Positions 3,089 through 26,533 of a DNA stretch of 64,000 bases are shown here, in pieces. The stretch lies in NCBI GenBank assembly GCA_963718525.1, contig OY970355.1:2656001-2720000 (forward strand). Direction: 5' to 3'. The DNA is from Candidatus Dormiibacterota bacterium. GTDB taxonomy: Bacteria; Chloroflexota; Dormibacteria; Aeolococcales; Aeolococcaceae. Made by a program: the position numbers and the translations under genes. The notes under the pieces are model-generated. The model was not told where the DNA came from. It worked only from the letters and a program-made list of their open reading frames with translations, and searched no databases. The first letter of the stretch is position 1. Every line of letters starts with the position of its first letter.

Positions 3089-4468
3089 ATGTCTTCGCAC
3101 CGTGAAGCGCCGGGCATCTCGAAGGACCCGGTTGCAGACAGCACTGACCTTTACGCGTTCACCAGTCCCGATCATCCCGACACCGTGACGCTGATCGCCA
3201 ACTACATCCCGCTCGAGGGACCCGACGGCGGCCCGAACTTCTACAACTTCGGCGACGACGTCCTCTACGAGATCGTTGTCACCAACGGTGGCAGCGTGGC
3301 CGACGCCATCACCTACCAGTTCAAGTTCACCACCGAGTACACCAATCCGAACACGTTCCTCTACAACACCGGGCCGATCACCAGCCTGACCAGCTCGTCC
3401 TGGAACGTCCGTCAGTTCTATTCGGTGACGCGGATCGTGCACGGCCACGCCGAAGTGCTCGCCGGCAAGCTCGCGTGCCCGCCTGTGAACGTCGGTGTCC
3501 GCTCCACCCCCGACTACGCCAAGCTCGCGCGCGCCGCGGTGCATCCCCTCGACGGCGGCTGGGTCTTCGCGGGCCAGCGACGTGAGGGCTTCTACGTCGA
3601 CCTCGGCTCGATCTTCGATCTCGGTGCGCTGCGCCCGTTCCAGAACCTGCACCTGATCCCGCTGCCCGCGGTGGGCGGCGTCGATTCGACCAAGCCGCTC
3701 AATGTGCACACCATCGCCATCCAGGTCCACAAGACCCATCTCACCAAGAACGGTCAGATGCCCACCGATCCGGCCAGCGCCGAGTCAGTGATCGGTGTGT
3801 ACACCACCGCCAGCCGGCGCAAGTCCACCGTGCTCGAGCACGGCGGCCGGGCCATGGACGTCGGGCCCTGGGTGCAGGTATCGCGCCTTGGCATGCCCCT
3901 GGTCAACGAGGTCATCATCCCGATCGGGAAGAAGGACTTCTGGAACTCCACCAAGCCAAGCCTCGATGCCCAGTTCGTGGCCAGCTACGCGCATCCTGAG
4001 CTCGCCGGCCTGCTTCCGGTCCTGTACCCGGGCGTGTTCCCGCACCTCGCGGCGTACACCCCCGCGCGTGCCGACCTCGAGGCAATCCTGCTCACCGGCA
4101 TCCCGTCCGGCATCGTCTCCGGCTTCCAGAACTCAACCGGATCGACCCCGGCGGATCTGCTCCGCCTCAACATGGCGATCCCCCCGGCAACCTCTCCGAG
4201 CGTCAACGGCATCTTGGGCGGAGATCTCGCCGGATTCCCGAACGGGCGCCGGGTCTTCGACGACGTCGCGACGATCGAGATCCGCGCGGTCGCCGGCGCA
4301 ACCATTCCGCTGGTCGACTCCAGCTATACGGCGGACGGCGCCGCCAGCCTGGTCAGTGACTTCTCGGCCGCCCAGTTCAGCGGTGGCGCGGTGCCCGGCA
4401 ATGGCCGGTACATCGATCACTTCCCGTACCTGGGCACGCCGCACAACGGATTCGACACCCCGAGTTGA
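3089..4468 (+). CDS. DUF4331 domain protein
   Basis: SSHREAP...DLYAF, QVSRLGMPLVNEV, GFPNGRR..DD and FPYL motifs; GAGGGG RBS. Confidence 0.88.
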   Translation: MSSHREAPGISKDPVADSTDLYAFTSPDHPDTVTLIANYIPLEGPDGGPNFYNFGDDVLYEIVVTNGGSVADAITYQFKFTTEYTNPNTFLYNTGPITSLTSSSWNVRQFYSVTRIVHGHAEVLAGKLACPPVNVGVRSTPDYAKLARAAVHPLDGGWVFAGQRREGFYVDLGSIFDLGALRPFQNLHLIPLPAVGGVDSTKPLNVHTIAIQVHKTHLTKNGQMPTDPASAESVIGVYTTASRRKSTVLEHGGRAMDVGPWVQVSRLGMPLVNEVIIPIGKKDFWNSTKPSLDAQFVASYAHPELAGLLPVLYPGVFPHLAAYTPARADLEAILLTGIPSGIVSGFQNSTGSTPADLLRLNMAIPPATSPSVNGILGGDLAGFPNGRRVFDDVATIEIRAVAGATIPLVDSSYTADGAASLVSDFSAAQFSGGAVPGNGRYIDHFPYLGTPHNGFDTPS

Positions 4469-4779
4469 CCGAGATCGAGCCCGCCGGTCCCGCTCCGAGC
4501 GGGCCGGCGGTCCTCGACATCGGTGGGGGGACCGGGGCGCTGCTGGTGATCGTGCCGGCAGCGCTCCTCAACACCGAGATCGAGGTCAGCCCCGACCAGC
4601 GGCCCGAGGCCCGCACGCACACCGGGGTGCATGAACGGCCGATGAACGGCGAACCGGTTCCGGTCGCCCTTTTCCCATCGCTCGGTGCCGGCACCTGGAG
4701 GCTGTGGGGATCGGGTCCGTGCACCACCCTGAGCGTCGAGATCGTGGACGGTCAGGTCACCGAGATGGACTGGCGCTGA
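4465..4779 (+). CDS. Small hypothetical beta-rich protein
   Basis: Overlaps the DUF4331 stop (TTGA); VLDIGGGTGAL...EIEVSP...HTGVHER...ALFPSL pattern; GC3-rich codons. Confidence 0.7.
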   Translation: MTEIEPAGPAPSGPAVLDIGGGTGALLVIVPAALLNTEIEVSPDQRPEARTHTGVHERPMNGEPVPVALFPSLGAGTWRLWGSGPCTTLSVEIVDGQVTEMDWR

Positions 4780-4786
4780 GGGCACC

Positions 4787-4845
4787 TTGACGGTCCCCTG
4801 GGTTTGCGTCTAACGTAGCCGGATTCTACAGGCGTTCAGTAGAAT
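4787..4845 (+). promoter_or_regulatory. Sigma70-type promoter TTGACG-N18-TAACGT with downstream palindrome ATTCTAC-N9-GTAGAAT
   Basis: Hexamers at 4787-4792 and 4811-4816; perfect 7-bp inverted repeat at 4823-4845. Confidence 0.55.
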
Positions 4846-4883
4846 TCTTTGCATCCGCACGGGCTGCCGGAGGGACCTGGTCG

Positions 4884-6254
4884 ATGGGGTTGTCTTTGGA
4901 AAACGTCGACTCGGATCGGGTCGCAACGCTGACCGCTCGCGAGGAGGCCGAGTTCCGGGCGCGGCGTACTCGGTCGAAGGAGCTCTGGAAGGAGGCCACG
5001 GAGTACATCCCTCGTGGGGTGCCGAGCTCCTTCCAGGACACGCCCCCGCAGCCGGTCTTCATCGACCACGGCAAGGGCAGCCGGGTGTGGGACGTGGACG
5101 GCAACGAGTACGCCGACTTCCACAACGGGTTTGGCGTGATGGTTGTCGGCCACGCGCACCCGGCGATCGTCGCGGCCGTGGAATCGCAACTGCATCGAGG
5201 GACCCATTTCGCGCAGCCGGTTGCCGAGAACATCGTGGTCGCGCGCGAGCTTGCGCGCCGTTTCCATCAGCCCCAATGGCGCTTCACCAACAGCGGCACC
5301 GAGTCCACCCTGGATGCGATCCGCCTGGCACGTGGCTTCACGGATCGCGAGCGGATCATCAAGATCGAAGCGTCCTACCACGGGCATCACGATGCGTTGC
5401 TGGTGTCGGTCGAACCCCCGGTGGACGCGATGGGCGACGCCGACTTCCCGAATTCGGTGCCCATGAGCGGCGGGATCCCCCAATCCACAGTCGACCTCAC
5501 CACCGTCGTGGGCTTCAACGACCTCGCCTCGCTGGAGCGCGCGTTCGCGGCGTATCCCGGAGAGGTCGCCGCAGTCATCGTCGAGCCGGCGATGATGAAC
5601 ATCGGCTTCGTGCTCCCCGAAGACGGGTACCTCGCGGGGATGGTCGAGATCGCCCACCGGCACGGCGCCGTGGCGATCTTCGATGAGGTGAAGACCGGCG
5701 TGACCATTGCGCCCGGCGGTGCCACCGAGCGCTTCGGCGTGGTGCCTGACATCGTCTGCCTCGCCAAGGCGATCGGCGGCGGGCTGCCCTGTGGCGCCGT
5801 GGGTGGTCGCGCCGACATCATGGCGACGATCACCGATGGCAAGGTCGCGCAGCTGGGCACCTTCAACGGCAATCCGCTGACCACCGCGGCCTCCCGGGCG
5901 ACGCTGCTCGAAGTGCTCACCGGCCAGGCCTACTCGCATCTCGATGCGCTCACCGAGGAGATGAGCGGCGGCCTGCGCGACGTGATGGGTGAATACCATC
6001 TGCCGTTCCATGTGGTGTCGATGGGAGCACGCGGCTGCGTGACCTATCGCAAGGACCCCGTGCGAAATTACCGGGACTACGCGGCCATGGACAAGTCGCT
6101 CGCCTACGTGTCCTGGCTCTTCCAGACCAATCGGGGTGTGCTGATGGCGCCTGGCGCCGAGGAGAACTGGACCTTGTCAGTGCAGCATTCGTCCGACGAC
6201 ATCAGGCGCTACGTCGCCAACTTTCGTGAGTTTGCGCGGGATCTCACAGCATGA
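4884..6254 (+). CDS. Class III PLP aminotransferase (GSA-like subgroup, probably amine/polyamine)
   Basis: SGTESTLDAIRLAR, YHGHHD, IFDEVKTG, AKAIGGG, GTFNGNP. Confidence 0.88.
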   Translation: MGLSLENVDSDRVATLTAREEAEFRARRTRSKELWKEATEYIPRGVPSSFQDTPPQPVFIDHGKGSRVWDVDGNEYADFHNGFGVMVVGHAHPAIVAAVESQLHRGTHFAQPVAENIVVARELARRFHQPQWRFTNSGTESTLDAIRLARGFTDRERIIKIEASYHGHHDALLVSVEPPVDAMGDADFPNSVPMSGGIPQSTVDLTTVVGFNDLASLERAFAAYPGEVAAVIVEPAMMNIGFVLPEDGYLAGMVEIAHRHGAVAIFDEVKTGVTIAPGGATERFGVVPDIVCLAKAIGGGLPCGAVGGRADIMATITDGKVAQLGTFNGNPLTTAASRATLLEVLTGQAYSHLDALTEEMSGGLRDVMGEYHLPFHVVSMGARGCVTYRKDPVRNYRDYAAMDKSLAYVSWLFQTNRGVLMAPGAEENWTLSVQHSSDDIRRYVANFREFARDLTA

Positions 6255-7693
6255 GCACGGTCGCGACCCGAGTCCTGCGCAACTTCGTCGACGGTGACTA
6301 TCGCGATGCGAGCTCTGACCTCACGACGCCGCTGATCAACCCGGCGACGGGCGAGGAGTTCGCCCGGGCGCCGCTCTCGAGCCCCGCCGACGTCGACGCC
6401 GCGCTCCAGGCGGCGCAGCGGGCCTTCCGCGGTTGGCGCGACACGACACCGAAGGACCGCAGCCTCGCGCTCCTCAAGATTGCTGACGCTTTCGAGCGGC
6501 GTGCGGAGGAGTTCGTCGCTCTCGAATGCGAGAACACCGGCAAGCCGATCTCGATGACCAGGAGCGAGGAGATCCCGCAGCTGATCGACCCGGTGCGGTT
6601 CTTTGCTGGCTGCGCGAGGATCCTCGAGGGTGCGAGCGCAGGCGAGTACATGGCCGGCCACACGTCGATGATCCGCCGCGAGCCGGTGGGTGTCTGCGCG
6701 CAGGTCACACCCTGGAACTACCCGATGCTCATGGCGGTATGGAAGTGGGCGCCGGCCATCGCCGCGGGAAACACCGTGGTGTTGAAGCCGTCGGACACGA
6801 CGCCGGTGACCACGTTGTTGATGGCCGAGATCATGGCCGAGTTTCTCCCCAAGGGTGTCTTCAACGTCATCTGCGGAGATCCGAGCACCGGAGCGGCGCT
6901 GGTCTCGCATCGGATTCCAGCCATGGCGTCCATCACCGGCAGCGTGCGCGCCGGCATGGAGGTCGCGCGCCTGGCAGCAGGCGACCTGAAGCGGGTCCAC
7001 CTCGAGCTCGGTGGCAAGGCGCCGGTCATCGTGTTTGATGATGCGGATATCGCCTCGACCGCCGAGATGGTCGCCATGGCCGGGTACTTCAACGCAGGGC
7101 AGGACTGCACCGCCGCGACCCGGGTGCTGGCTGCATCGTCGATACACGACGAACTGGTGGCCGCGCTCGCCGAGCAGGCGGCGGTGAACAAAACCGGTGC
7201 CCCGGACGATGACGACATCGCGTTCGGGCCGCTCAACAATGCCAGGCAACTCGATCGCGTCCGCGACCTCGTCGGAGGCGCACCATCCCATTCCGACGTT
7301 GTGGCGGGCGGGCACCGGGTCGGGGACCGCGGCTACTTCCACGAGGCGACGGTCATCGCCGGGCTGCGACAGGACGACGACCTCATCCAACGGGAGATCT
7401 TCGGCCCGGTCATCACCGTGCAGCGCTTCAGCGACGAGGAAACCGCTCTCGAGTGGGCCAACGGCGTGGAGTACGGACTCTCAGCCAGTGTCTGGACGCA
7501 TGATCACGGCCGCGCGATGCGCATGGCGCGCGCACTGGACTTCGGTTGCGTCTGGATCAACACGCACATCCCACTGGTGTCGGAGATGCCACACGGCGGG
7601 TTCAAGCATTCGGGGTACGGCAAGGATCTGTCCATGTACGGGTTCGAGGACTACACGCGCATCAAGCATGTCATGAGCAACAACGACGCCTGA
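6251..7693 (+). CDS. Gamma-aminobutyraldehyde dehydrogenase family
   Basis: PWNYP, LELGGKAP, NAGQDCTAATR, EIFGPV; EDYTRIKHVM C-terminus typical of the PatD/Prr group. Confidence 0.88.
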   Translation: MSTVATRVLRNFVDGDYRDASSDLTTPLINPATGEEFARAPLSSPADVDAALQAAQRAFRGWRDTTPKDRSLALLKIADAFERRAEEFVALECENTGKPISMTRSEEIPQLIDPVRFFAGCARILEGASAGEYMAGHTSMIRREPVGVCAQVTPWNYPMLMAVWKWAPAIAAGNTVVLKPSDTTPVTTLLMAEIMAEFLPKGVFNVICGDPSTGAALVSHRIPAMASITGSVRAGMEVARLAAGDLKRVHLELGGKAPVIVFDDADIASTAEMVAMAGYFNAGQDCTAATRVLAASSIHDELVAALAEQAAVNKTGAPDDDDIAFGPLNNARQLDRVRDLVGGAPSHSDVVAGGHRVGDRGYFHEATVIAGLRQDDDLIQREIFGPVITVQRFSDEETALEWANGVEYGLSASVWTHDHGRAMRMARALDFGCVWINTHIPLVSEMPHGGFKHSGYGKDLSMYGFEDYTRIKHVMSNNDA

Positions 7694-7734
7694 TCTCTCA
7701 GGCGCGGTCAGGAGGATACGGTGAGGAGGATCAC

Positions 7735-9348
7735 ATGGCGACGTTAGCGGAGCCGATCGTTCACGGGAAGCCGGTCGAATCGGAGCTCAAAACCAACACA
7801 CTCACGCTGTTCGACACCACGGTGATCGCGACATCCAGCGTGGCGCCGGCATACACGCTGGCTGCCACGATGGGGTTCCTGGTCGCGGCGGTGGGGCTCG
7901 CGTCGCCGGCAGCCATCCTCGTGGGTTTCGTTCCGGTTCTCTGCATCGCCATCGCGTACTACTACCTCAATCGTCAGGACCCGAACTGCGGCGCTTCGTA
8001 CTCGTGGGTCAGCCGGACGCTCAGCCCACACATCGGCTGGCTCTCGGGCTGGATTCAGCTCGCGGCGAACGTGCTCTTCTGCGCGGCTGCTCCGCTGGTT
8101 GCCGGCGTGTACACGCTGCAGCTCCTCAACAGTCTGTTCCCCAGCTGGATCACCGCGAACATCGCCGGCGACAATCGTTGGATCGCGTTCGTTGCCGTCC
8201 TGTGGCTGGCCCTCGTCACGTTCATGGTCGTCCGAGGCATTCGTATCACCGCGAACTTTCAGTGGATCCTCGTATTCATCGAGTACGTGATCGTGCTCGC
8301 CTTTGCGCTCTGGGCTCTCGGGAAGATCATCGGCGGTCAGCACGCCGTGACACCACTTGCGGGCTGGTGGTTCAGCCCGACCGCGCTGGGAGGGCTCAGC
8401 GGTATCGCCACCGGCTCGGCGCTCGCGGTGTTCTTCTTCTGGGGCTGGGACACGGCGGCCAACGTCAACGAGGAGTCCAAGGACGCCGACACCTCCCCGG
8501 GCCTCGCCGGCATCTACAGCATGTTCATCCTGCTGTTCATCTTTCTGCTGGCCGCCATCGCGATGCAGGCATACCTCGGGTCGGACGCGCTGACGAATTC
8601 GGCCAATCAGAACGACGTGCTCTACTTCTTTGCCCAACAGATCGCCGGGACGCCGCTCGCATATCTCATGGTGCTTGCGGTCCTCTCCTCCACCGTTGCA
8701 ACCACGCAGACGACGCTGCTCCCGTCGAGCAGGCTGACGTATTCAATGGCTCGCGATGGCGTCTTCCCACACTGGTTCAGCACCGTTCATCCCGCGTGGC
8801 GGACTCCCTGGGTCGGCACGATCATCTCGTCCGTGCTCGCCTTTGTCGTCATCATCCTGGATGTCGTCCTCTCGACGACCGTCGTGGGTGGGATCTTCTC
8901 GAGCCTGATCCTCGACATCGGCGTTCTGGTCGCGCTGTATTACGGAATCACGGGTATCGCCTGCACGTGGGCGTTCCGCAAAGTGCTCCTGACGAGCATC
9001 ACCCGCTTCGTGTTCGCCGGGATACTGCCATTCCTCGGCGGCCTCTTCCTGTTGTTCATCGCCTACGCTGTGGTTGCTCCGAATACGCTCCCATTTGGCC
9101 AGTCGCCGGACTGGGCAACCAGCCTGCCGATCCTGATCACGGTCGGCGTCGGCGTGCCGCTGCTCGTCCTCGCCATGGCTTCGAATAGCACCGGTTTCTT
9201 CCGCGAGAAGACCGTGTCGTACGTATTGATCAAGGATCAGCTCATGGCGTCGATTGGCGGCGCGCGGCCCGTGGAGCTGGCGGTTGCCGCCGTCGGCGTT
9301 GGCCCGGCGGTCGACCCCGCTGATCAGAGCCGATCGAGCAACCCGTAG
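7735..9348 (+). CDS. APC family amino acid/polyamine permease
   Basis: About 12 TM segments; FWGWDTAANVNEE and SMARDG motifs; GAGGAGG RBS before MATLAEP. Confidence 0.88.
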   Translation: MATLAEPIVHGKPVESELKTNTLTLFDTTVIATSSVAPAYTLAATMGFLVAAVGLASPAAILVGFVPVLCIAIAYYYLNRQDPNCGASYSWVSRTLSPHIGWLSGWIQLAANVLFCAAAPLVAGVYTLQLLNSLFPSWITANIAGDNRWIAFVAVLWLALVTFMVVRGIRITANFQWILVFIEYVIVLAFALWALGKIIGGQHAVTPLAGWWFSPTALGGLSGIATGSALAVFFFWGWDTAANVNEESKDADTSPGLAGIYSMFILLFIFLLAAIAMQAYLGSDALTNSANQNDVLYFFAQQIAGTPLAYLMVLAVLSSTVATTQTTLLPSSRLTYSMARDGVFPHWFSTVHPAWRTPWVGTIISSVLAFVVIILDVVLSTTVVGGIFSSLILDIGVLVALYYGITGIACTWAFRKVLLTSITRFVFAGILPFLGGLFLLFIAYAVVAPNTLPFGQSPDWATSLPILITVGVGVPLLVLAMASNSTGFFREKTVSYVLIKDQLMASIGGARPVELAVAAVGVGPAVDPADQSRSSNP

Positions 9349-20484: not shown

Positions 20485-21450
20485 TCAGCTGGAGGCCGGC
20501 GGCACGGTGACGACGGTCGGAGGCTCGAGGCCGGGCGCATCACCCAGCACACTTCGGAGCACCTGCGCCGCGCCGAGCAATCCGGAGGTCTCAGCGGGGA
20601 CGACGAGCTTGGCGTTGGGGCTCTCTGCGAACTTCGTCAGGGTGTCGAGCTGCAGGATCGCGACCAAGGTGGGATCCGGAGCCGCCGCCTTGATTGAGCC
20701 GTACACGGTCGAGATCGCCTGCGCGCGTCCTTCCGCTTCGAGGATCGCCGCCTGCCGGTTGCCCTCAGCGCGGAGGATGGCCGCCTGCCGCTCGCCTTCG
20801 GCCTGCTTGATGGCTGCCTGCCGGTTACCGTCCGCAATGTTGACGGCCGACTGCTGCTGACCTTCCGACTGCAGGATGCGGGCCCGCTTCTCCTGGTCTG
20901 CCTGCTTCTGGAGGGCCATCGCCTGGAGGATCTGCACCGGTGGGGAGATATCGACGATCTCGATCCGGTTGATCCTGATCCCCCACTTGTCGGTGACCTG
21001 CTCCATCTGCTGCTGCATCGCCGCATTGATCTGCTCGCGCGAGGAGAGCGCCTCATCGAGGCTGACGTTGCCGAATGCGTTACGAAGCGTGGTGCGCGCC
21101 TGCTGATCGATCGCGACGAGGTAGTCGGACACGTTGAACAGCGCCGCCCTCGGCTCGATGACCTGGCTGAAAATGGTCGCGTTGACCGCGACGGCGACGT
21201 TGTCACGGGTGATCACGTCCTGGCGATCTCCGGTACGTGGCGTCTCGCGCATGTCGACGCGGAGCAACTTGTCGATGAACGGCGTGATGATGGTCAGGCC
21301 GGCTTGCGATTCCCGCCGAAAGCGTCCAAAACGAGTGACCACGCCGGCGAATCCCTGCGGCACGACGCGCACGGCGCCACCGATAAGAATCGCGACCACG
21401 ATGAGCAGGACGACGACGATGATCGCCGTGACCAGACCACTGTTGTTCAC
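20485..21450 (-). CDS. SPFH/stomatin domain protein (QmcA-like)
   Basis: N-terminal TM, QDVITRDNV, KWGIRINRIEI, AEGxRQAAIL repeats; GGAGG RBS. Confidence 0.92.
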   Translation of the reverse strand: MNNSGLVTAIIVVVLLIVVAILIGGAVRVVPQGFAGVVTRFGRFRRESQAGLTIITPFIDKLLRVDMRETPRTGDRQDVITRDNVAVAVNATIFSQVIEPRAALFNVSDYLVAIDQQARTTLRNAFGNVSLDEALSSREQINAAMQQQMEQVTDKWGIRINRIEIVDISPPVQILQAMALQKQADQEKRARILQSEGQQQSAVNIADGNRQAAIKQAEGERQAAILRAEGNRQAAILEAEGRAQAISTVYGSIKAAAPDPTLVAILQLDTLTKFAESPNAKLVVPAETSGLLGAAQVLRSVLGDAPGLEPPTVVTVPPASS

Positions 21451-21454
21451 TGAG

Positions 21455-21913
21455 TCAGCCTCCCTTGGGGGGCGCGACCACAAGGGTGGTGCCGCGCACT
21501 TCGACGACGGTGACCTGCTGATGCGCGGGCACGCCACCGGGGTTGGTGGTCACCGCCAGCCAGCGTTCGTTGAACAGCCGCGCATGCCCTGGGTGGTTCT
21601 CGTCGCCGACCGGCTCGAGTGTCAGTGCCGGCTGCCCGACAAGATTGTCAGACGCACCCGGCATCGTCAGCTTTGGGCCCAGATGGCGGGCGGAAATCCG
21701 AGCCAGGGTCGGTCGAACCGCCATGGTCCCGACAATCGCCACGGCTGCGCCGACCACCGCCTGCACCCATACCTGCGTCGGGAACAGCGCGACGACCGTC
21801 GCTGCGAATGAACCCAGCGCAAGGAAGAGCGCGTAGAACGCCTGGCTGTGGACTTCGAGTCCCACGAGGACGAGGCCGGCGATCAGCCAGACCACCCACA
21901 TCCAGGTCAACAT
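21455..21913 (-). CDS. nfeD: NfeD family protein (short form)
   Basis: TM N-terminus, LVGQPA, ERWLA, VTVVEVRGTTLVV; standard partner of SPFH genes. Confidence 0.88.
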   Translation of the reverse strand: MLTWMWVVWLIAGLVLVGLEVHSQAFYALFLALGSFAATVVALFPTQVWVQAVVGAAVAIVGTMAVRPTLARISARHLGPKLTMPGASDNLVGQPALTLEPVGDENHPGHARLFNERWLAVTTNPGGVPAHQQVTVVEVRGTTLVVAPPKGG

Positions 21914-21942: not shown

Positions 21943-22500
21943 CTACACAATCGAATCGACGGCCATCCTGGCCCCGGCGGCTCGGAGCAGCGCGAGCGCC
22001 ACCAGCCCGCCGAGCGTCGCCCACGCTGCCAGGCTGATCGCCAGCTGGCTGAAATCAGTTCCTGCCAGCTGTGCGTGGATCAGGAAAATCCCGAACATCG
22101 GGTAGCTCAGGCGATGGATCCAGCGCCACAGGACCGGCTGCATCGCGCGCCGGAGCGCCGAGCTCACGCCGATCAGGACGAGCAGCAGCAGCCCGATCGT
22201 GCCGAGCCCGATGGCGAGCTGTGAGCCCGCTCCTTCGTTGACGCGAAACGGCACGAGCAGGTCGAGCGGCGTGATCCGCGACGTCGAGTCGAGCAGGAGC
22301 GATGTGACGTGCACCATCACCAGTGGCACCCAGAACCAGGTGAGAAACCCATGCACCGCAAGCACGGCGCGGTTTCGTGCCAGTGGCGCGAGCAATGCCG
22401 TGCGTATCGCCATGCCGGTGAGAACCGACGCGGCAAGGATGAAGAATGCTGCAAGTGCCGCGGCGCGCGCGGCGTACCAGAGGATCAGGTCGGCGCTCAC
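21943..22500 (-). CDS. Ferric reductase-like (MsrQ-like) heme b membrane protein
   Basis: About 5 TM helices, two His pairs (VHGF...VMVH; WRWIHRLSY...LIH), GTD motif. Confidence 0.85.
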   Translation of the reverse strand: MSADLILWYAARAAALAAFFILAASVLTGMAIRTALLAPLARNRAVLAVHGFLTWFWVPLVMVHVTSLLLDSTSRITPLDLLVPFRVNEGAGSQLAIGLGTIGLLLLVLIGVSSALRRAMQPVLWRWIHRLSYPMFGIFLIHAQLAGTDFSQLAISLAAWATLGGLVALALLRAAGARMAVDSIV

Positions 22501-22501
22501 G

Positions 22502-23365
22502 TCAGGCTACCAGGGCGACGGCTGACGGCACGATCGCGTGGCAGGCGGCTCCACGAGCTTCGACCCACCCACGCGCGGCCGAGGGCCCGATCAGGCACCC
22601 GCCCTTGGCGAGCACGTCGGCGCGCAGCGCGTTCGCCGCGATCACCGAGAACGCACCGACCCCGGTGGTTGTCGGTGCGCCCGTGCGTGGGTCGATGAGG
22701 TGGTGCCCGCCCAGCCAGCGCCGGCGTGAAATCCCGGACGTAGCGATCCCTGCGTCGCACACGGTCACCGAGAGGCCGTCGCACAGCACGACGTCCCAAC
22801 CGCGCCGCTGTGGTCCTGCGCCCCTGGTCCGGATATCGCCGCCGAGATTGATCGCAGCGTTGTCGAAGCGCTCGCACAGGCGGTCGGCGAGCCATCCCTT
22901 ACCGACGCCGCCGAGGTCGATCGAGCACTCGTGAGTGAGGCGAGCCCAGCCGTCGCCCACCTCGAGCACGTCTGGGAGAGCCGGGACAGCCGTACATGGT
23001 GACGGGCGATTGCGCGCCATCGTGGCGGCGCGTAGCTCGGTGAAGGAACGGTCGTACCCGGCGTCCATGAGCGCCGGCAGGCAGGCGGCATTCACCAGCC
23101 CATCGCTGAGTTCGTACGCATCGAGACAGACCCGGAGCAGCTCGGCGAGGAGTGGTGACACCGCCACTCGGGCGCCTGCTCCGGTGTTGAATCGCGAGAG
23201 CTCACTGTCCGAGTCAAACCTGGTGAGTGCCTGCTCGAATGCGTGCGTGTCTGCGATGGTCGCTGACACGTCGTCCTGGTTTGACTCGCAGACGATCACC
23301 TCGCATCGGGCCCCGCCGAACGCGGTGAACACGTGGCGGATCGGCGGGTGGTGCACGCCGATCAC
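22502..23365 (-). CDS. apbE: FAD:protein FMN transferase
   Basis: TRFDSDSELSRFN, IDLGGVGKG, INLGGDI, ATSG, HHLIDPRTG; no signal peptide. Confidence 0.92.
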   Translation of the reverse strand: MIGVHHPPIRHVFTAFGGARCEVIVCESNQDDVSATIADTHAFEQALTRFDSDSELSRFNTGAGARVAVSPLLAELLRVCLDAYELSDGLVNAACLPALMDAGYDRSFTELRAATMARNRPSPCTAVPALPDVLEVGDGWARLTHECSIDLGGVGKGWLADRLCERFDNAAINLGGDIRTRGAGPQRRGWDVVLCDGLSVTVCDAGIATSGISRRRWLGGHHLIDPRTGAPTTTGVGAFSVIAANALRADVLAKGGCLIGPSAARGWVEARGAACHAIVPSAVALVA

Positions 23366-23835
23366 GACACGTACGTGCTGATGAGGGGGTTGGCCGACGG
23401 CGGCGCGGCGACGACCGATGGCACGATCGCGCTGCCCGCACCGGTGGCCGCGCTGCCGGCGCAGCTCGCCGCGGTGCCGTTGGTTATTCGCTGCAGCCCA
23501 TGCAGATACGCCTCAACGGCGAGCCGCTGCGACGCGGTCAGCGGGGCCAGGATGCTTCGTCGTTCGCTCGCGGTGTTCGCCTGGCGCAACTGCTGCACGA
23601 CAGGGAGCAACGACGGATCGAGCGCAGCAGACGAACTTCCCGCGTTGATGCCGGCTCCCCCGCAGGATGGTGGGATGACAAGCGCCGCGGCCTTGGTCGA
23701 CGAGCCGCTCAACGAGGGGCGCAACGGTGCCGCCGCCGGCTTCGGGTCGCTCGCCACCAGCACTCCGCTCACGCCACACACGGCGACTGCGCTCACACCG
23801 CTGACGATCTTGAGCGCACGCGTACCGAGTGTCAT
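23362..23835 (-). CDS. Secreted or anchored Ser/Ala-rich hypothetical protein
   Basis: Hydrophobic N-terminus; GTGA overlap with apbE; 3 nt from the DUF1501 stop. Confidence 0.75.
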   Translation of the reverse strand: MTLGTRALKIVSGVSAVAVCGVSGVLVASDPKPAAAPLRPSLSGSSTKAAALVIPPSCGGAGINAGSSSAALDPSLLPVVQQLRQANTASERRSILAPLTASQRLAVEAYLHGLQRITNGTAASCAGSAATGAGSAIVPSVVAAPPSANPLISTYVS

Positions 23836-23838
23836 TGA

Positions 23839-25074
23839 TCAGGCGGTCTGGATGATCGGAAGCTCGGGAAACGAAGCACCGAGCACCGAGGTTGGATCCG
23901 CCTGCAACCAGTCGCGAATGAGCGTCTGATACACGCTGCGAAAGTCGACGTTGTACTTGAGGTTCCCCGAGTCCACGGTGCTGGTCAGCGACGGTTGCTC
24001 ACCGAAGACCCCACCCTTGACCGGCTTGCCGACGACGAACACCGGGGCGGCCGCGCCATGGTCTGTGCCCTTGCCGCCATTCTCGGCGACCCGCCTGCCG
24101 AACTCCGACCAGGTCATGAGCACGACCCGATCGGCCATGCCGTGGTTGGCGATGTCCTGCATGAACGCGCTCACCGCACTGTCGACGTAAGCGAGCAGCG
24201 CGTGCTGGCGCGTGTCCTCATCCTGGTGCGTGTCAAAGCCACCGAGGACGACGTGACAGATCTTGACGCTCGGCTGAGTCACGATCATCTCCGCGGTGAG
24301 CTGGAGTGATGTCGCCAGGCTATTCTTGCTCCCGTACACGGTGCTCTGAGGTGTGTATGTCACCGACGGCGTGTACCGGGTTTGCAAGTCTGCGAGCGCG
24401 GCGATTCCATACTCCGCGGTCGACAGGGCCTGGTCGAACAGCGCACCGTAGATGCCCGGCGTCTTCGTATAGAGCGCGGGAGCTGCCACGCGGCGCCCGG
24501 CTCCGCCCTGCACCTGGTAGGCGGGAACGGAGTCGATGACGCTCACCGTGGCGCTTTGCGCGAGCAGCTCAGCGGGCGCGCTTGCTTGACCGAGTGCGCA
24601 ACCGGTGAGCGGATGTCCCTGCGAGTCGAGCTGGCTCGCGAGCAGCTTCCCGAGCCATCCCTCGGTCTGCTGCATCGTCGGATCCGCGTGCTCCCAGATG
24701 TACAGGCCCTCGAAGTGCGAGTACACGGGATTCGGATACCCCACGCCCTGCACGAGCGCGACCTCGCCGGCGTCGAAGAGCTTTTTGATGCCGGGCATCA
24801 CTGGGTTCAGCCCGACCGCCGCATTGAGAGGGAGCAGCTTGTCCGCGGGGATGCCGATGGTTGGTCGTGCCTGCAGATAGGCGGGATCCGCGAGGGGCAC
24901 GACGGTGTTCAACCCGTCGTTGCCGCCGCCGAGCTGGAGGATGACGAGCACGTGGTCGTTGTGCACGTCCTCCATGGTCGCGGCGAAGACCGACTTCGCA
25001 AAGACCGGCGGCACGATGATGCCAACGCCGGTCGCCGTGATGCCGCTCACCATGAAATCGCGTCGCGTGATCAT
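23839..25074 (-). CDS. DUF1501 domain protein (Tat signal)
   Basis: MITRRDFM; LGGGNDGLNTVVP, SHF, GGFDTH, SEFGRR...GTDHG, DFRSVY. Confidence 0.92.
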   Translation of the reverse strand: MITRRDFMVSGITATGVGIIVPPVFAKSVFAATMEDVHNDHVLVILQLGGGNDGLNTVVPLADPAYLQARPTIGIPADKLLPLNAAVGLNPVMPGIKKLFDAGEVALVQGVGYPNPVYSHFEGLYIWEHADPTMQQTEGWLGKLLASQLDSQGHPLTGCALGQASAPAELLAQSATVSVIDSVPAYQVQGGAGRRVAAPALYTKTPGIYGALFDQALSTAEYGIAALADLQTRYTPSVTYTPQSTVYGSKNSLATSLQLTAEMIVTQPSVKICHVVLGGFDTHQDEDTRQHALLAYVDSAVSAFMQDIANHGMADRVVLMTWSEFGRRVAENGGKGTDHGAAAPVFVVGKPVKGGVFGEQPSLTSTVDSGNLKYNVDFRSVYQTLIRDWLQADPTSVLGASFPELPIIQTA

Positions 25075-25084
25075 CTCGTTGGCC

Positions 25085-26533
25085 TCACTTGAGCTGAAAT
25101 TCGGGGCTGGCGAGCAGCGCGTACCACCTGTCGGCATCGCTCATGCTCGCGTTGAAGACCGCGGCGGTATCGGGGCCCACGACACCATCGAGCTGGGTGT
25201 GGACCGCGGCGATCGGATCAGGAAGGCTGTTCTGGCCGGCCACGGCGCCGGCCGCGAAGTTGAGCCGAGCCAGCCACGCTCCAGACGAAACCCATCCCTG
25301 GTTGGAGGGCCAGCCGGCCACCGTTGGCATGTCGTAGAGGATCTGGTCCATACCCGCGCCCGACTGAACGCCCGTGGCTGCAAGGGCGGGACGGTTGAGC
25401 GCCCGCATGGTGGCGACCATGAACTCCGCCGGACCGCGCACGAGGGAGCGGAACGCGCTCGGCGTCGTGAACGCCTCATCGGTGAACACGGCGCGCATCA
25501 ACGTCTTGATGTCGTAGTTGCTGCTCTTGAATTGTGTCGCGACGCTGTTGATGAGCTGGGCCGATGGATCGGGGGTGCAGAACTGCACCAGCGCACTGCG
25601 CGCGATGTGGGGCGCGCACGCAGGTTGCGACAGGATGATGTCGAGCGCCTGCCCAGGATCCAGGTTCCCGGTGTGGCCGAGAAACGTCTTCACGCCCGCG
25701 TCGTGCTGATTGGCTGCCAGGATGCCCTTGAACGTCGCGCCCTGGGCGATGAGCTGGTCCAGCGCCTGCGCGTACGCCGCCGGCGTCGAACCCTTGATTC
25801 GCGGCGCCTCGATCCGCCTGCCGCTCGCATCGATAAGGACCGTGCGGATCCCCGAGAACGCGCGCGCCCCCTCGCGGACATCGGTCTCGGTGTAGTTGCC
25901 GACGCCGAGCGTGAAGAGCTCCATGAGCTCACGGCTGTAGTTCTCGTTGGGGGCCGCGGCCGTGCTCTCCTCGAGGTCGAGGTAGCGGATCATCAGCGGG
26001 TCAAACGTGACCGCGTTGATGAGGGTGCGGAAGTCGCTCTGTCCGCTGGTCCGGTAGAGCTCGTTCTGCTGCAGTACCAAGGGAAGACGCGCAGCCTTCC
26101 GATAGTCGCTCGTGAGCAGCCCGTGCCAGAAGAGGGTCATCCGTTCGGGGAACTGCCCCGTCGTGGTCGCCATGTGCTCGTACCAGGCGCGGACAACAGC
26201 CTGATAGCTCGTCGGGTCGGCGACCTGGGGCAGTGGCTGCGGCTCCTGATTCACCACCATGTCGACCAGGTCCGTGTAGGACATCGAGGCCGCGGCATCA
26301 AGCTCCGCTGCCGTGTAGCCGAAGGTCGCCCTGCGGAGGAGGTGCGCGGCGAGGCCCCCCGGCGTTCCCAGGGGGCTCGTCCAGGCACCGCTCGCACCCG
26401 CCTCGGAAGCGACGGCTGGCGACCCGCCCGGAAGCTGCATCGTGAGGTAGCGGAAGCCCACCGCCCCGGCCATTCCTCCGGCGGCGATGCCGAGCACCTG
26501 GCGCCGGCTGAGCTTGGGGTTCGCACCACGCAT
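25085..26533 (-). CDS. DUF1800 domain protein (Tat signal)
   Basis: LSRRQVLG; HLLRRATFG, ERMTLFWHG, PNENYSRELMELFTLG, SPEFQ. Confidence 0.92.
   Translation of the reverse strand: MRGANPKLSRRQVLGIAAGGMAGAVGFRYLTMQLPGGSPAVASEAGASGAWTSPLGTPGGLAAHLLRRATFGYTAAELDAAASMSYTDLVDMVVNQEPQPLPQVADPTSYQAVVRAWYEHMATTTGQFPERMTLFWHGLLTSDYRKAARLPLVLQQNELYRTSGQSDFRTLINAVTFDPLMIRYLDLEESTAAAPNENYSRELMELFTLGVGNYTETDVREGARAFSGIRTVLIDASGRRIEAPRIKGSTPAAYAQALDQLIAQGATFKGILAANQHDAGVKTFLGHTGNLDPGQALDIILSQPACAPHIARSALVQFCTPDPSAQLINSVATQFKSSNYDIKTLMRAVFTDEAFTTPSAFRSLVRGPAEFMVATMRALNRPALAATGVQSGAGMDQILYDMPTVAGWPSNQGWVSSGAWLARLNFAAGAVAGQNSLPDPIAAVHTQLDGVVGPDTAAVFNASMSDADRWYALLASPEFQLK

Follow-up and report, generated by a model that had tools for sequence, protein, structure and literature searches.

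A cassette of a small anchored protein, an ApbE-family protein and a putative cytochrome b is linked to DUF1800/DUF1501 in Dormibacteria and may serve as an electron-transfer module

We analyzed a window of 64,000 nucleotides (nt) from Candidatus Dormiibacterota bacterium, an uncultured bacterium from soil (assembly GCA_963718525.1, contig OY970355.1, positions 2,656,001 to 2,720,000 of the forward strand), a genome that consists of a single 3.34-Mb contig. Five consecutive minus-strand genes at window positions 21943-26533 encode a DUF1800 and a DUF1501 protein with twin-arginine (Tat) signals, followed by a small membrane-anchored protein, an ApbE-family protein and a cytochrome-like membrane protein; we refer to the last three genes as the cassette or trio. 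The five-gene order is kept in the family of the window genome (f1) and in a second Dormibacteria family (f4), and in a third family (f3) the trio is found behind a molybdoenzyme. We propose that the trio encodes a transmembrane electron-transfer cassette for the Tat-exported DUF1800/DUF1501 proteins encoded just upstream, and we rate the chance that this flavin/haem wire serves the pair, taken as a whole, as somewhat short of even. The net result would be a wire between the cytoplasm or the quinone pool and an exported enzyme, which would be a DUF1800/DUF1501 subtype in f1 and f4 and the membrane-anchored molybdoenzyme in f3. The five genes are, in the direction of transcription:

25085-26533, minus strand: DUF1800 protein, 482 amino acids (PF08811, 4.2e-90), with the twin-arginine motif LSRRQVL
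23839-25074, minus strand: DUF1501 protein of the cassette-linked subtype, 411 amino acids (PF07394, 1.5e-26), with the twin-arginine motif MITRRDF
23362-23835, minus strand: small membrane-anchored protein, 157 amino acids, with a transmembrane helix at residues 7-28, an APLRP motif, an insert at 74-118 and the tail TYVS
22502-23365, minus strand: signal-less ApbE-family protein of a Lys-type clade, 287 amino acids (PF02424, 4.7e-40)
21943-22500, minus strand: miniature ferric-reductase-domain-like membrane protein, 185 amino acids, with two bis-His pairs; putative di-haem cytochrome b

The gaps along this string (10, 3, -4 and 1 nt), as described in the original prediction, were reproduced from the coordinates of the open reading frames (ORFs), taking the ATG at 25074, immediately before the TRRDF motif, as the start of DUF1501; the longest ORF begins at 25137. 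Ratios of nonsynonymous to synonymous substitution rates (dN/dS) between close pairs are 0.05-0.34 for the cytochrome, DUF1501 and DUF1800 genes and 0.14-0.43 for the small-protein and ApbE genes, and all five genes are under purifying selection. A chance arrangement is excluded because the order is kept in related genomes and dN/dS lies at 0.05-0.43 for the five genes.

Conservation of the linkage was followed in species-representative genomes, many of them incomplete metagenome-assembled genomes; genome-level presence and coordinate counts take in genomes flagged as unpublished, none of which is among the fetched loci. DUF1800 is present in 17 of 24 other genomes of the genus, and in 13 of these 17 loci the small-protein, ApbE and cytochrome genes lie between DUF1501 and an NfeD gene. 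The three genus genomes without DUF1800 that were checked (3/3) lack the whole five-gene block between NfeD and the upstream gene. The syntenic site thus holds five genes (13 loci), the pair alone (4) or nothing (3), and the trio alone in none of 20. All five genes are found in the same order in 9/9 loci from five other f1 genera, with identities to the window proteins of ~60% for DUF1800, 64-75% for DUF1501, 33-45% for the small protein, 53-63% for ApbE and 58-66% for the cytochrome. The linkage is therefore not unique to one genome, and it is kept in two Dormibacteria families.

In the second of these families, f4, all nine fetched loci (9/9) read DUF1800-DUF1501-small-ApbE-cytochrome. A class-wide search with the window ApbE, in which orthologue-level matches have 41-51% identity and counts were taken at E<=1e-25, found matches in 25/84 genomes of f1, 32/43 of f3, 89/123 of f4, 1/39 of f2 and 1/11 of f5; those of f2 and f5 and two of the f1 matches are at paralogue level (~1e-26). 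By coordinates, ApbE and DUF1800 lie no more than 5 kb apart on one contig in 68 of the 77 f4 genomes for which both are listed, and in the remaining nine (9/77) they lie on different contigs, many of them ~2 kb or less from a contig start. Overlapping or near-abutting genes are kept in the string across f1 and f4.

The third family offers a different partner. In 5/5 fetched f3 loci the trio is directly downstream of a gene for a 498-residue protein with Oxidored_molyb and Mo-co_dimer domains, a sulfite-oxidase-family molybdoenzyme with an RRR motif and several hydrophobic helices that form an N-terminal multi-span anchor. ApbE and DUF1800 are on different contigs in 30/30 f3 genomes. Because the orthologous trio sits here behind a molybdoenzyme and not behind DUF1800/DUF1501, it is, judged from gene order, a portable module for exported enzymes. 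Relatives of sulfite-oxidase-family molybdoenzymes take electrons from MsrQ-type membrane cytochromes; since the f3 trio sits behind such an enzyme, a wire for an exported enzyme encoded upstream is a reasonable proposition. A phylogenetic tree unites the f1, f3 and f4 cassette ApbEs in a single clade (support 100/98) that sits on a long branch and has the topology f1,(f3,f4); in-genome paralogues and the ApbEs of other classes fall outside it. If the gene tree follows the species tree, the simpler account would be that the DUF1800/DUF1501 linkage is ancestral and that f3 moved the trio to the molybdoenzyme. The presence of the cassette on the pair and, in a sister lineage, on a molybdenum oxidoreductase suggests a concrete hypothesis, namely that the pair needs or yields electrons.

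The members of the pair itself are readily assigned. The DUF1800 protein matches its profile over the full length (positions 1-419 of 419, 303.4 bits), and the DUF1501 protein scores 93.9 bits against a cut-off of 27. Twin-arginine motifs, read by eye, are conserved in both ([ST]RRQ[VA]L in 26/26 family orthologues of DUF1800; RRDF invariant in 10/10 DUF1501 sequences), in line with the predicted Tat-DUF1800 and Tat-DUF1501. An AlphaFold2 model of the DUF1800 protein is all-helical, with a predicted local distance difference test score (pLDDT) of 91.5. A Foldseek search of the 482-residue model against the PDB returned nothing at E<=0.001 (best 0.34), and sequence searches of the PDB gave no meaningful relative of DUF1800 and none of DUF1501 by single-sequence or profile search. 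In a wide comparison with VIA-align, the best match of the DUF1800 model was to phycobilisome linker domains (Z 5.2, root-mean-square deviation 3.6 over 116 residues), a likeness that probably reflects a common helical arrangement and lies within the chance range for helical proteins. DUF1800 comprises 11,689 representative clusters at 50% identity and is found in 171 of 401 genomes sampled in the phylum. DUF1800/DUF1501 thus ranks among the most widespread exported protein pairs without an assigned function, and a full-text literature search found no published functional study of either family.

The DUF1501 proteins of f1 and f4 form a distinct subtype. They share an insertion of 7-8 residues (..VY[GS]SKN), a one-residue insertion, Cys159 (in LTGCA) and a deletion of about ten residues, and all four signatures are missing in 39 full-length DUF1501 proteins from f3, f5, other classes and the second pair of one f1 genome. 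The longer insertion is present in all cassette-linked DUF1501 proteins aligned (21/21 from f1, the window included, and 8/8 from f4). It is also carried by 2/2 full-length DUF1501 proteins of the genus that lost the cassette, so the signatures mark a clade and not the presence of the cassette. The f1 genome with a second DUF1800-DUF1501 pair is G263 (loci L041, G263:C7, and L036, G263:C2); this pair has ~35% identity to that of the window, is without the cassette and lacks the DUF1501 signature indels.

Breaks in the reading frames were seen at several loci. At L014, L016, L017, L019, L020 and L022 the DUF1501 gene (at L019 also ApbE, at L022 also DUF1800) aligns as two to three pieces in different frames. 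These frameshift-like breaks in DUF1501 and ApbE, mostly in assemblies of 2-20 contigs, resemble indel error more than decay and may stem from sequencing.

Several observations weigh against the trio acting as a wire for the pair, and the first of these concern linkage. In 4/17 loci of the genus DUF1501 is followed directly by NfeD and the trio has been lost, one of the four keeping a 31-residue remnant of the small gene. The NfeD-SPFH neighbours downstream of the cassette are equally syntenic across f1, and part of the f1 linkage is therefore plain descent. The association also does not extend to DUF1800/DUF1501 in general. In a sample of 40 DUF1800 loci drawn from f3 (8), f5 (3) and other classes of the phylum (29), with f4 not included, DUF1501 adjoins DUF1800 in 39, and ApbE occurs within ~9 kb of the pair in none (0/40, two of the loci ending at a contig edge near DUF1501); as a positive control, the same ApbE profile found 22/22 cassette loci. 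Across 301 genomes of the class, cassette ApbE and DUF1800 occur together in 141, ApbE only in 4 (one a borderline match, three from genomes 66-82% complete), DUF1800 only in 46 and neither in 110, a table that is a pattern rather than an association test because the genomes are kin and the genes mostly linked, so that its counts overstate the association; cassette ApbE is missing in 46 of the 187 DUF1800-positive genomes, whereas, in favour of the wire, DUF1800 accompanies cassette ApbE in 141 of 145 genomes. The f3 molybdoenzyme gene is separated from the small gene by 127 nt. Finally, the invariant residues of DUF1800 and DUF1501 look acid/base or metal-hydrolase-like rather than like a redox centre, as far as their sequences indicate.

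These findings bear on an alternative in which the genes are neighbours by descent, and the trio is a self-sufficient MsrQ-like module with a job of its own, for example the reduction of a metal or an envelope substrate, that happens to adjoin the pair in two related families. Survival of the pair where the trio was lost, the lack of ApbE near the 40 loci outside f1 and f4, the separation of trio and pair in all 30 f3 genomes and the equal synteny of NfeD-SPFH would all be expected. So would the genomic background: every one of the four ApbE genes in the source genome has a Ferric_reduct-type gene close by, and the window module is one of several paralogous ApbE/cytochrome modules, the other three having other neighbours. 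The DUF1800/DUF1501 pair is single-copy in this genome, and the window module alone adjoins it. Against simple descent, however, the gap between DUF1501 and the small gene has been kept at 3 nt or ~25 nt while ApbE identity between families fell to just 41-46%, no genus locus of 20 has the trio only, the f3 trio again follows an exported oxidoreductase (5/5 loci), and the linkage goes together with a separate DUF1501 subtype in f1 and f4. We consider descent alone an unlikely explanation.

Relatives of the trio were also sought beyond the class. Among ~370 genomes outside it there is one orthologue-level Lys-type ApbE (1.6e-52). This gene (L099, G356:C86:2876-3742) lies by itself on a 5.3-kb contig, flanked by rpoB and rplL/rplJ, with no small gene or cytochrome visible. 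For the other closest ApbE relatives beyond the class, at 33-41% identity, 12 loci were fetched; a ferric-reductase-like gene is in the neighbourhood in 11 of them, and DUF1800, DUF1501 and the f3-type molybdoenzyme in none. In another family of the phylum, locus L071 (G409:C1) has two ferric-reductase-like ORFs (~6549-8799, minus strand) divergent from a standalone DUF1800/DUF1501 pair, whose DUF1800 gene is at ~8806 on the plus strand; one of the ORFs passes PF01794. Pair and ORFs stand there without ApbE, which may be an independent redox neighbourhood or chance. A marine co-abundance cluster that lists ApbE together with DUF1800 (PMC3597751) was not counted as a link, as the same cluster holds unrelated domains.

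The 185-residue membrane protein, named in the original prediction as a four-His haem protein of ferric-reductase type, retains its histidines and a softened label. His50 and His64 (spacing 14) and His129 and His142 (spacing 13) are invariant in 36/36 orthologues. We take this 14/13 spacing on two helices to be the bis-haem signature of ferric-reductase domains, and the four residues would fit two stacked b-haems in a putative di-haem protein. An hmmscan against Pfam gave no match even at E=10. A six-frame search with PF01794 (Ferric_reduct) matched the gene along positions 2-120 of the 121 in the profile, but its 22.5 bits fall short of the cut-off of 28. Phmmer matches it at 1e-11 to an in-genome paralogue that does pass Pfam. 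Hydropathy shows four strong segments and a weaker, His-bearing one at ~125-146, five in total where six are typical. The protein is without a dehydrogenase domain, unlike the paralogue at genome positions 2269090-2270673, which has FAD_binding_8 and NAD_binding_1.

The ApbE assignment is firm at the family level (138.2 bits to PF02424 against a cut-off of 25.6; 5e-12 to ApbE/Ftp chains in the PDB), and the DLGGVGKG (DLGG.GKG), TSG and HHLIDP motifs are kept. As had been predicted, the protein lacks a signal peptide: no segment is hydrophobic and the frame offers no earlier start codon, 25/25 aligned orthologues are likewise signal-less, and all of them start their first conserved strand at residue 13 or before. 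The active site holds a second group of points that count against the wire. In solved ApbE/Ftp structures, the Thr of an A-D-x-x-x-T motif is a Mg ligand. Here it is replaced by Lys254, which is invariant in 25/25 orthologues, with in-genome paralogues keeping Thr. Four positions ahead of Lys254 the window protein has Asp250, where most orthologues have Glu. With the Mg-ligand Thr changed to Lys and the Asp mostly to Glu, transferase activity cannot be taken for granted. Only f4 has preserved the N-terminal MGT motif, which reads FGG in f1 and LGS in f3. Ser210 (of TSG) and His221/His222 are invariant. In a review (PMC12052999), the conserved set of V. cholerae ApbE is Ser241, His257 and Asp285, and cytosolic ApbEs are described, so that a signal peptide or lipobox is usual for the family without being required. 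The correspondence of Ser210, His221/222 and Asp250 to this numbering was made by motif.

The altered site would suit an ApbE that is not a transferase and acts instead as a subunit that binds or hydrolyses flavin adenine dinucleotide (FAD), giving the cytochrome its cytoplasmic flavin in place of an FAD/NAD domain. The invariant Thr to Lys change, the Glu found in most orthologues and the loss of MGT in f1 and f3 point this way, as does the missing dehydrogenase domain of the 185-residue cytochrome. One of the solved relatives, a Treponema enzyme entered as ApbE/Ftp, has FAD pyrophosphatase activity. We know of no ApbE that acts as a redox subunit. Set against such a role are the retained Ser210, His221/222, DLGG.GKG, HHLIDP and acidic residue 250 and the purifying selection on ApbE, and we regard it as very unlikely.

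The small protein, predicted as secreted, is indeed small and has an N-terminal hydrophobic helix; as hydropathy gives this single helix only, the protein is better called membrane-anchored. It has no Pfam or NCBIfam match even at E=10, only unnamed clusters in the ESM Atlas (at 0.84), and its homologues are found in Dormibacteria only, all annotated as hypothetical. Lengths are 144-185 residues in f1, ~55-77 in f4 and ~46-57 in f3, and the only features shared class-wide are the N-terminal anchor helix, A-P-L-x-P just after it and a C-terminal [ST]-[YH]-[VA]-S, with P37, L38, P40 and S157 invariant in 33/33 proteins of the class-wide alignment. In an AlphaFold2 model (pLDDT 56.7) the protein is disordered apart from one transmembrane helix and three short helices. 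The segment of three helices at 74-118 is specific to f1 and the sole part modelled with pLDDT above 70. Class-wide, the protein can be described as an anchor and a C-terminal tail joined by a flexible linker. An FMN-bind-like fold, which we had considered for this protein, was rejected on the strength of the model.

How the small gene meets the ApbE gene differs between families, with the same small-protein C-terminus in both designs. In f1 the stop codon of the small gene overlaps the ApbE start as ATGA or GTGA (4 nt). The overlap of f3 and f4 is 11 nt long, with the ATG of ApbE placed within the Tyr/His-Val/Ala codons of the small gene. Along these 11 nt, ApbE residue 2 may be P, R, H or S and residue 3 P, L or R, but the small protein has [VA]-S throughout, which places selection on the small-protein frame. 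The notion that the small gene and ApbE are one split gene was rejected, because their frames differ and the start overlap is conserved nearly everywhere. Reading through occurs at L016 (G004) alone, where at 3890-5170 the small gene loses register at its end and continues in the ApbE frame, through either a fusion or an assembly indel. At L018 (G012), positions 4193-5524, the last 33 codons of the small gene are in another frame, and a long open frame is shared with ApbE.

A third group of unfavourable points concerns the flavinylation site, and here no canonical site was found for the predicted flavinylated carrier in the operon. The ApbE target motif is D-x-x-[S/T]-G-A-[S/T], and tags bearing it work best at protein ends (PMC12052999). 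Neither this motif nor [S/T]GA[S/T] occurs in any of the five operon proteins, and a scan for relaxed forms with a conservation filter returned only S-A-V-S in DUF1501. The S-A-V-S was rejected as a site because its sequence context looks helical, and an SGSS in the small protein is only a partial match and is not conserved. The conserved tail [ST][YH][VA]S keeps just the [S/T]-x-x-[S/T] spacing of the motif, plus the Ala in f4, and a change of Gly to Tyr/His at the second motif position is without precedent in the parts of the literature consulted. The only canonical motif adjoining an ApbE gene in the source genome is that of an FMN_bind protein at 2268652, other six-frame matches being far away.

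We predicted the complex of ApbE, FAD, Mg and small-protein residues 119-157 from custom alignments. The median score was 0.75, compared with 0.25 for the best of three controls; scores at the 0.75 level are reached by 116/157 solved complexes and 2/215 mismatched pairs, a mark that is rough here given the custom alignments and included ligands. At least 70% of contacts recur between runs, and the partner pLDDT is at least 48. In the predicted interface, residues 148-157 of the small protein contact ApbE residues 8-24, 171-178, 184-195, 207-215 and 238-240, which include NLGGD and Thr209 of TSG. To our knowledge there is no solved ApbE-substrate complex, so a memorised structure is an unlikely source of the score. 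The model suggests that ApbE binds the small-protein tail; it is compatible with a substrate and with a tether and cannot separate the two.

If the tail is a substrate, ApbE would bind it and attach flavin mononucleotide (FMN) at a noncanonical site, Ser157 or Thr154. The tethered flavin would exchange electrons with one face of the di-haem protein, and the other face of that protein would exchange them with the electron pool of the cell. An anchored tail flavinylated at [ST]-[YH]-[VA]-S-COOH would be the smallest ApbE substrate, a 'flavin on a leash' that makes a plug-in wire with the di-haem core, and this specific proposal we hold to be rather doubtful. A difficulty that also counts against the wire is topology. 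Flanking charges, read by eye under the positive-inside rule, weakly place the tail outside the cell, and with ApbE signal-less the two may lie on opposite sides of the membrane. The tail could be modified before membrane insertion, the overlapping starts making ApbE where the tail is released, or a cytoplasmic tail could supply the entry flavin to the domain-less cytochrome.

Alternatively, the small protein may hold ApbE at the cytoplasmic face through strand addition by its tail, and ApbE would flavinylate a Tat substrate (DUF1501, DUF1800 or the molybdoenzyme) before export, or the cytochrome. This would agree with the lack of a signal in all 25 ApbE orthologues and with the least-error contacts of the predicted complex, which are at ApbE residues 171-178 and 190-195 and not at residues 150-157 or 221-226 of the FAD motifs. 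The Tat pathway moves proteins that are already folded and loaded with cofactor, both kinds of upstream partner carry twin-arginine motifs, and the DUF1501 subtype has a clade-specific Ser/Thr-rich loop. On the other hand, DUF1800, DUF1501 and the cytochrome have neither a canonical nor a conserved relaxed motif, no SGAT-like motif was seen by eye in the f3 molybdoenzyme sequence, and the charge distribution weakly favours a tail outside. A tether of this kind appears improbable to us.

The electron chain that the original prediction drew to give the pair a redox role is thus upheld in part: the linkage is conserved and the trio has been exchanged onto a molybdoenzyme, but there is no canonical flavinylation motif, the link is not general and the trio was lost in 4/17 loci. 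By analogy with the f3 arrangement, the wire reading would mean that the cassette-linked DUF1800/DUF1501 subtype carries out, or depends on, redox chemistry. Separately, the trio would add to the biology of ApbE a clade that has no signal and an altered metal site, together with a micro-protein partner that lacks the canonical motif.

We compared the locus with known systems. In MsrPQ (YedYZ), the periplasmic molybdoenzyme MsrP is fed by the haem-b membrane protein MsrQ. The locus resembles it in joining a Tat-exported enzyme to a ferric-reductase-domain cytochrome b, and the f3 partner has Oxidored_molyb, presumably the domain family of MsrP. MsrPQ is without ApbE and without a micro-protein, whereas the partner in the window is DUF1800/DUF1501 instead of a molybdoenzyme, and the f3 molybdoenzyme adds a Mo-co dimerisation domain and the N-terminal multi-span anchor. 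Canonical DUF1800 (PF08811)/DUF1501 (PF07394) pairs share families, gene order and twin-arginine signals with that of the window; linkage to the cassette is confined to the f1/f4 DUF1501 subtype, which is set apart by its insertion, Cys and deletion.

The nearest described class is that of MsrQ-like PF01794 proteins clustered with apbE, presented by Meheust et al. 2021 (eLife, PMC8238504) as a flavinylation-associated class of transmembrane electron transfer, with orphan apbE genes implying further substrates. Clusters are defined there by PF01794 within five genes of ApbE, FMN-bind, DUF2271 or DUF3570, and a filter demands that ApbE or a known substrate bear a signal peptide or lipidation site. 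Our locus has a signal-less ApbE, no known substrate domain and a cytochrome below the PF01794 cut-off, and because of that filter the survey (PMC8238504) would drop it; its main text has no mention of DUF1800 or DUF1501. The likeness to these clusters, as described, is an apbE gene beside a PF01794-type two-haem multi-span protein, with electrons proposed to reach extracytosolic partners. The locus differs in lacking both the canonical motif and any FMN-bind, DUF2271 or DUF3570 substrate, in its signal-less Lys-type ApbE and 185-residue cytochrome core without an NAD/FAD domain, and in its anchored micro-protein of 46-185 residues in a string joined to DUF1800/DUF1501. Surveys filtered on signal peptides or known substrates would in general miss this signal-less ApbE clade and its micro-protein.

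A redox idea for DUF1501 is not new. According to Kamneva et al. 2012 (PMC3542564), DUF1501 is tied to PSCyt1/PSCyt2/PSD1 proteins with cytochrome-c motifs in Planctomycetes/Verrucomicrobia, and a role in electron transport was suggested. A Tat-type DUF1501 genetically linked to putative haem electron carriers is common to both systems, whereas in that system, as there described, DUF1800 is replaced by a soluble/outer partner with a c-type haem motif, neither ApbE nor a ferric-reductase-like protein takes part, and the host phyla are others. Full-text literature searches found no published description of a DUF1800/DUF1501-ApbE-cytochrome cluster.

Downstream of the cytochrome gene are NfeD, an SPFH protein and a RarA-like ATPase. 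NfeD (21455-21913) and the SPFH/HflK-like protein (20485-21913 for the two) are on the same strand, begin 29 nt past the cytochrome gene and are syntenic across f1. In a relative ~90% alike, NfeD, cytochrome, ApbE, small gene and DUF1501 were found together on one contig from a sequencing run judged to be probably of DNA. A scan of the locus found no promoter-like site (0) and two terminator-like sites, with 2.5 expected from shuffles, and is uninformative.

Two other ApbE modules of the source genome lie outside the window. A textbook MsrQ-like cluster at G000:C1:2267784-2270673 contains a ferric reductase with FAD/NAD domains, an anchored FMN_bind protein, the only one in the genome, which bears the canonical DIISGATFT, and an ApbE. 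This ApbE is also without a signal peptide (N-terminus MPSLASPPNTV...), so that the signal-less state may be a lineage habit rather than that of one operon. The module at G000:C1:1129572-1134531, with neither FMN_bind nor a canonical flavinylation motif nearby, contains a 195-residue ferric-reductase-like protein, a NuoF-like protein, a Fer4_15 ferredoxin, YceI, a GT2 glycosyltransferase and ApbE. The YceI gene is on the opposite strand, and the NuoF-like protein is seemingly split over two frames (Complex1_51K/SLBB, then NADH_4Fe-4S).

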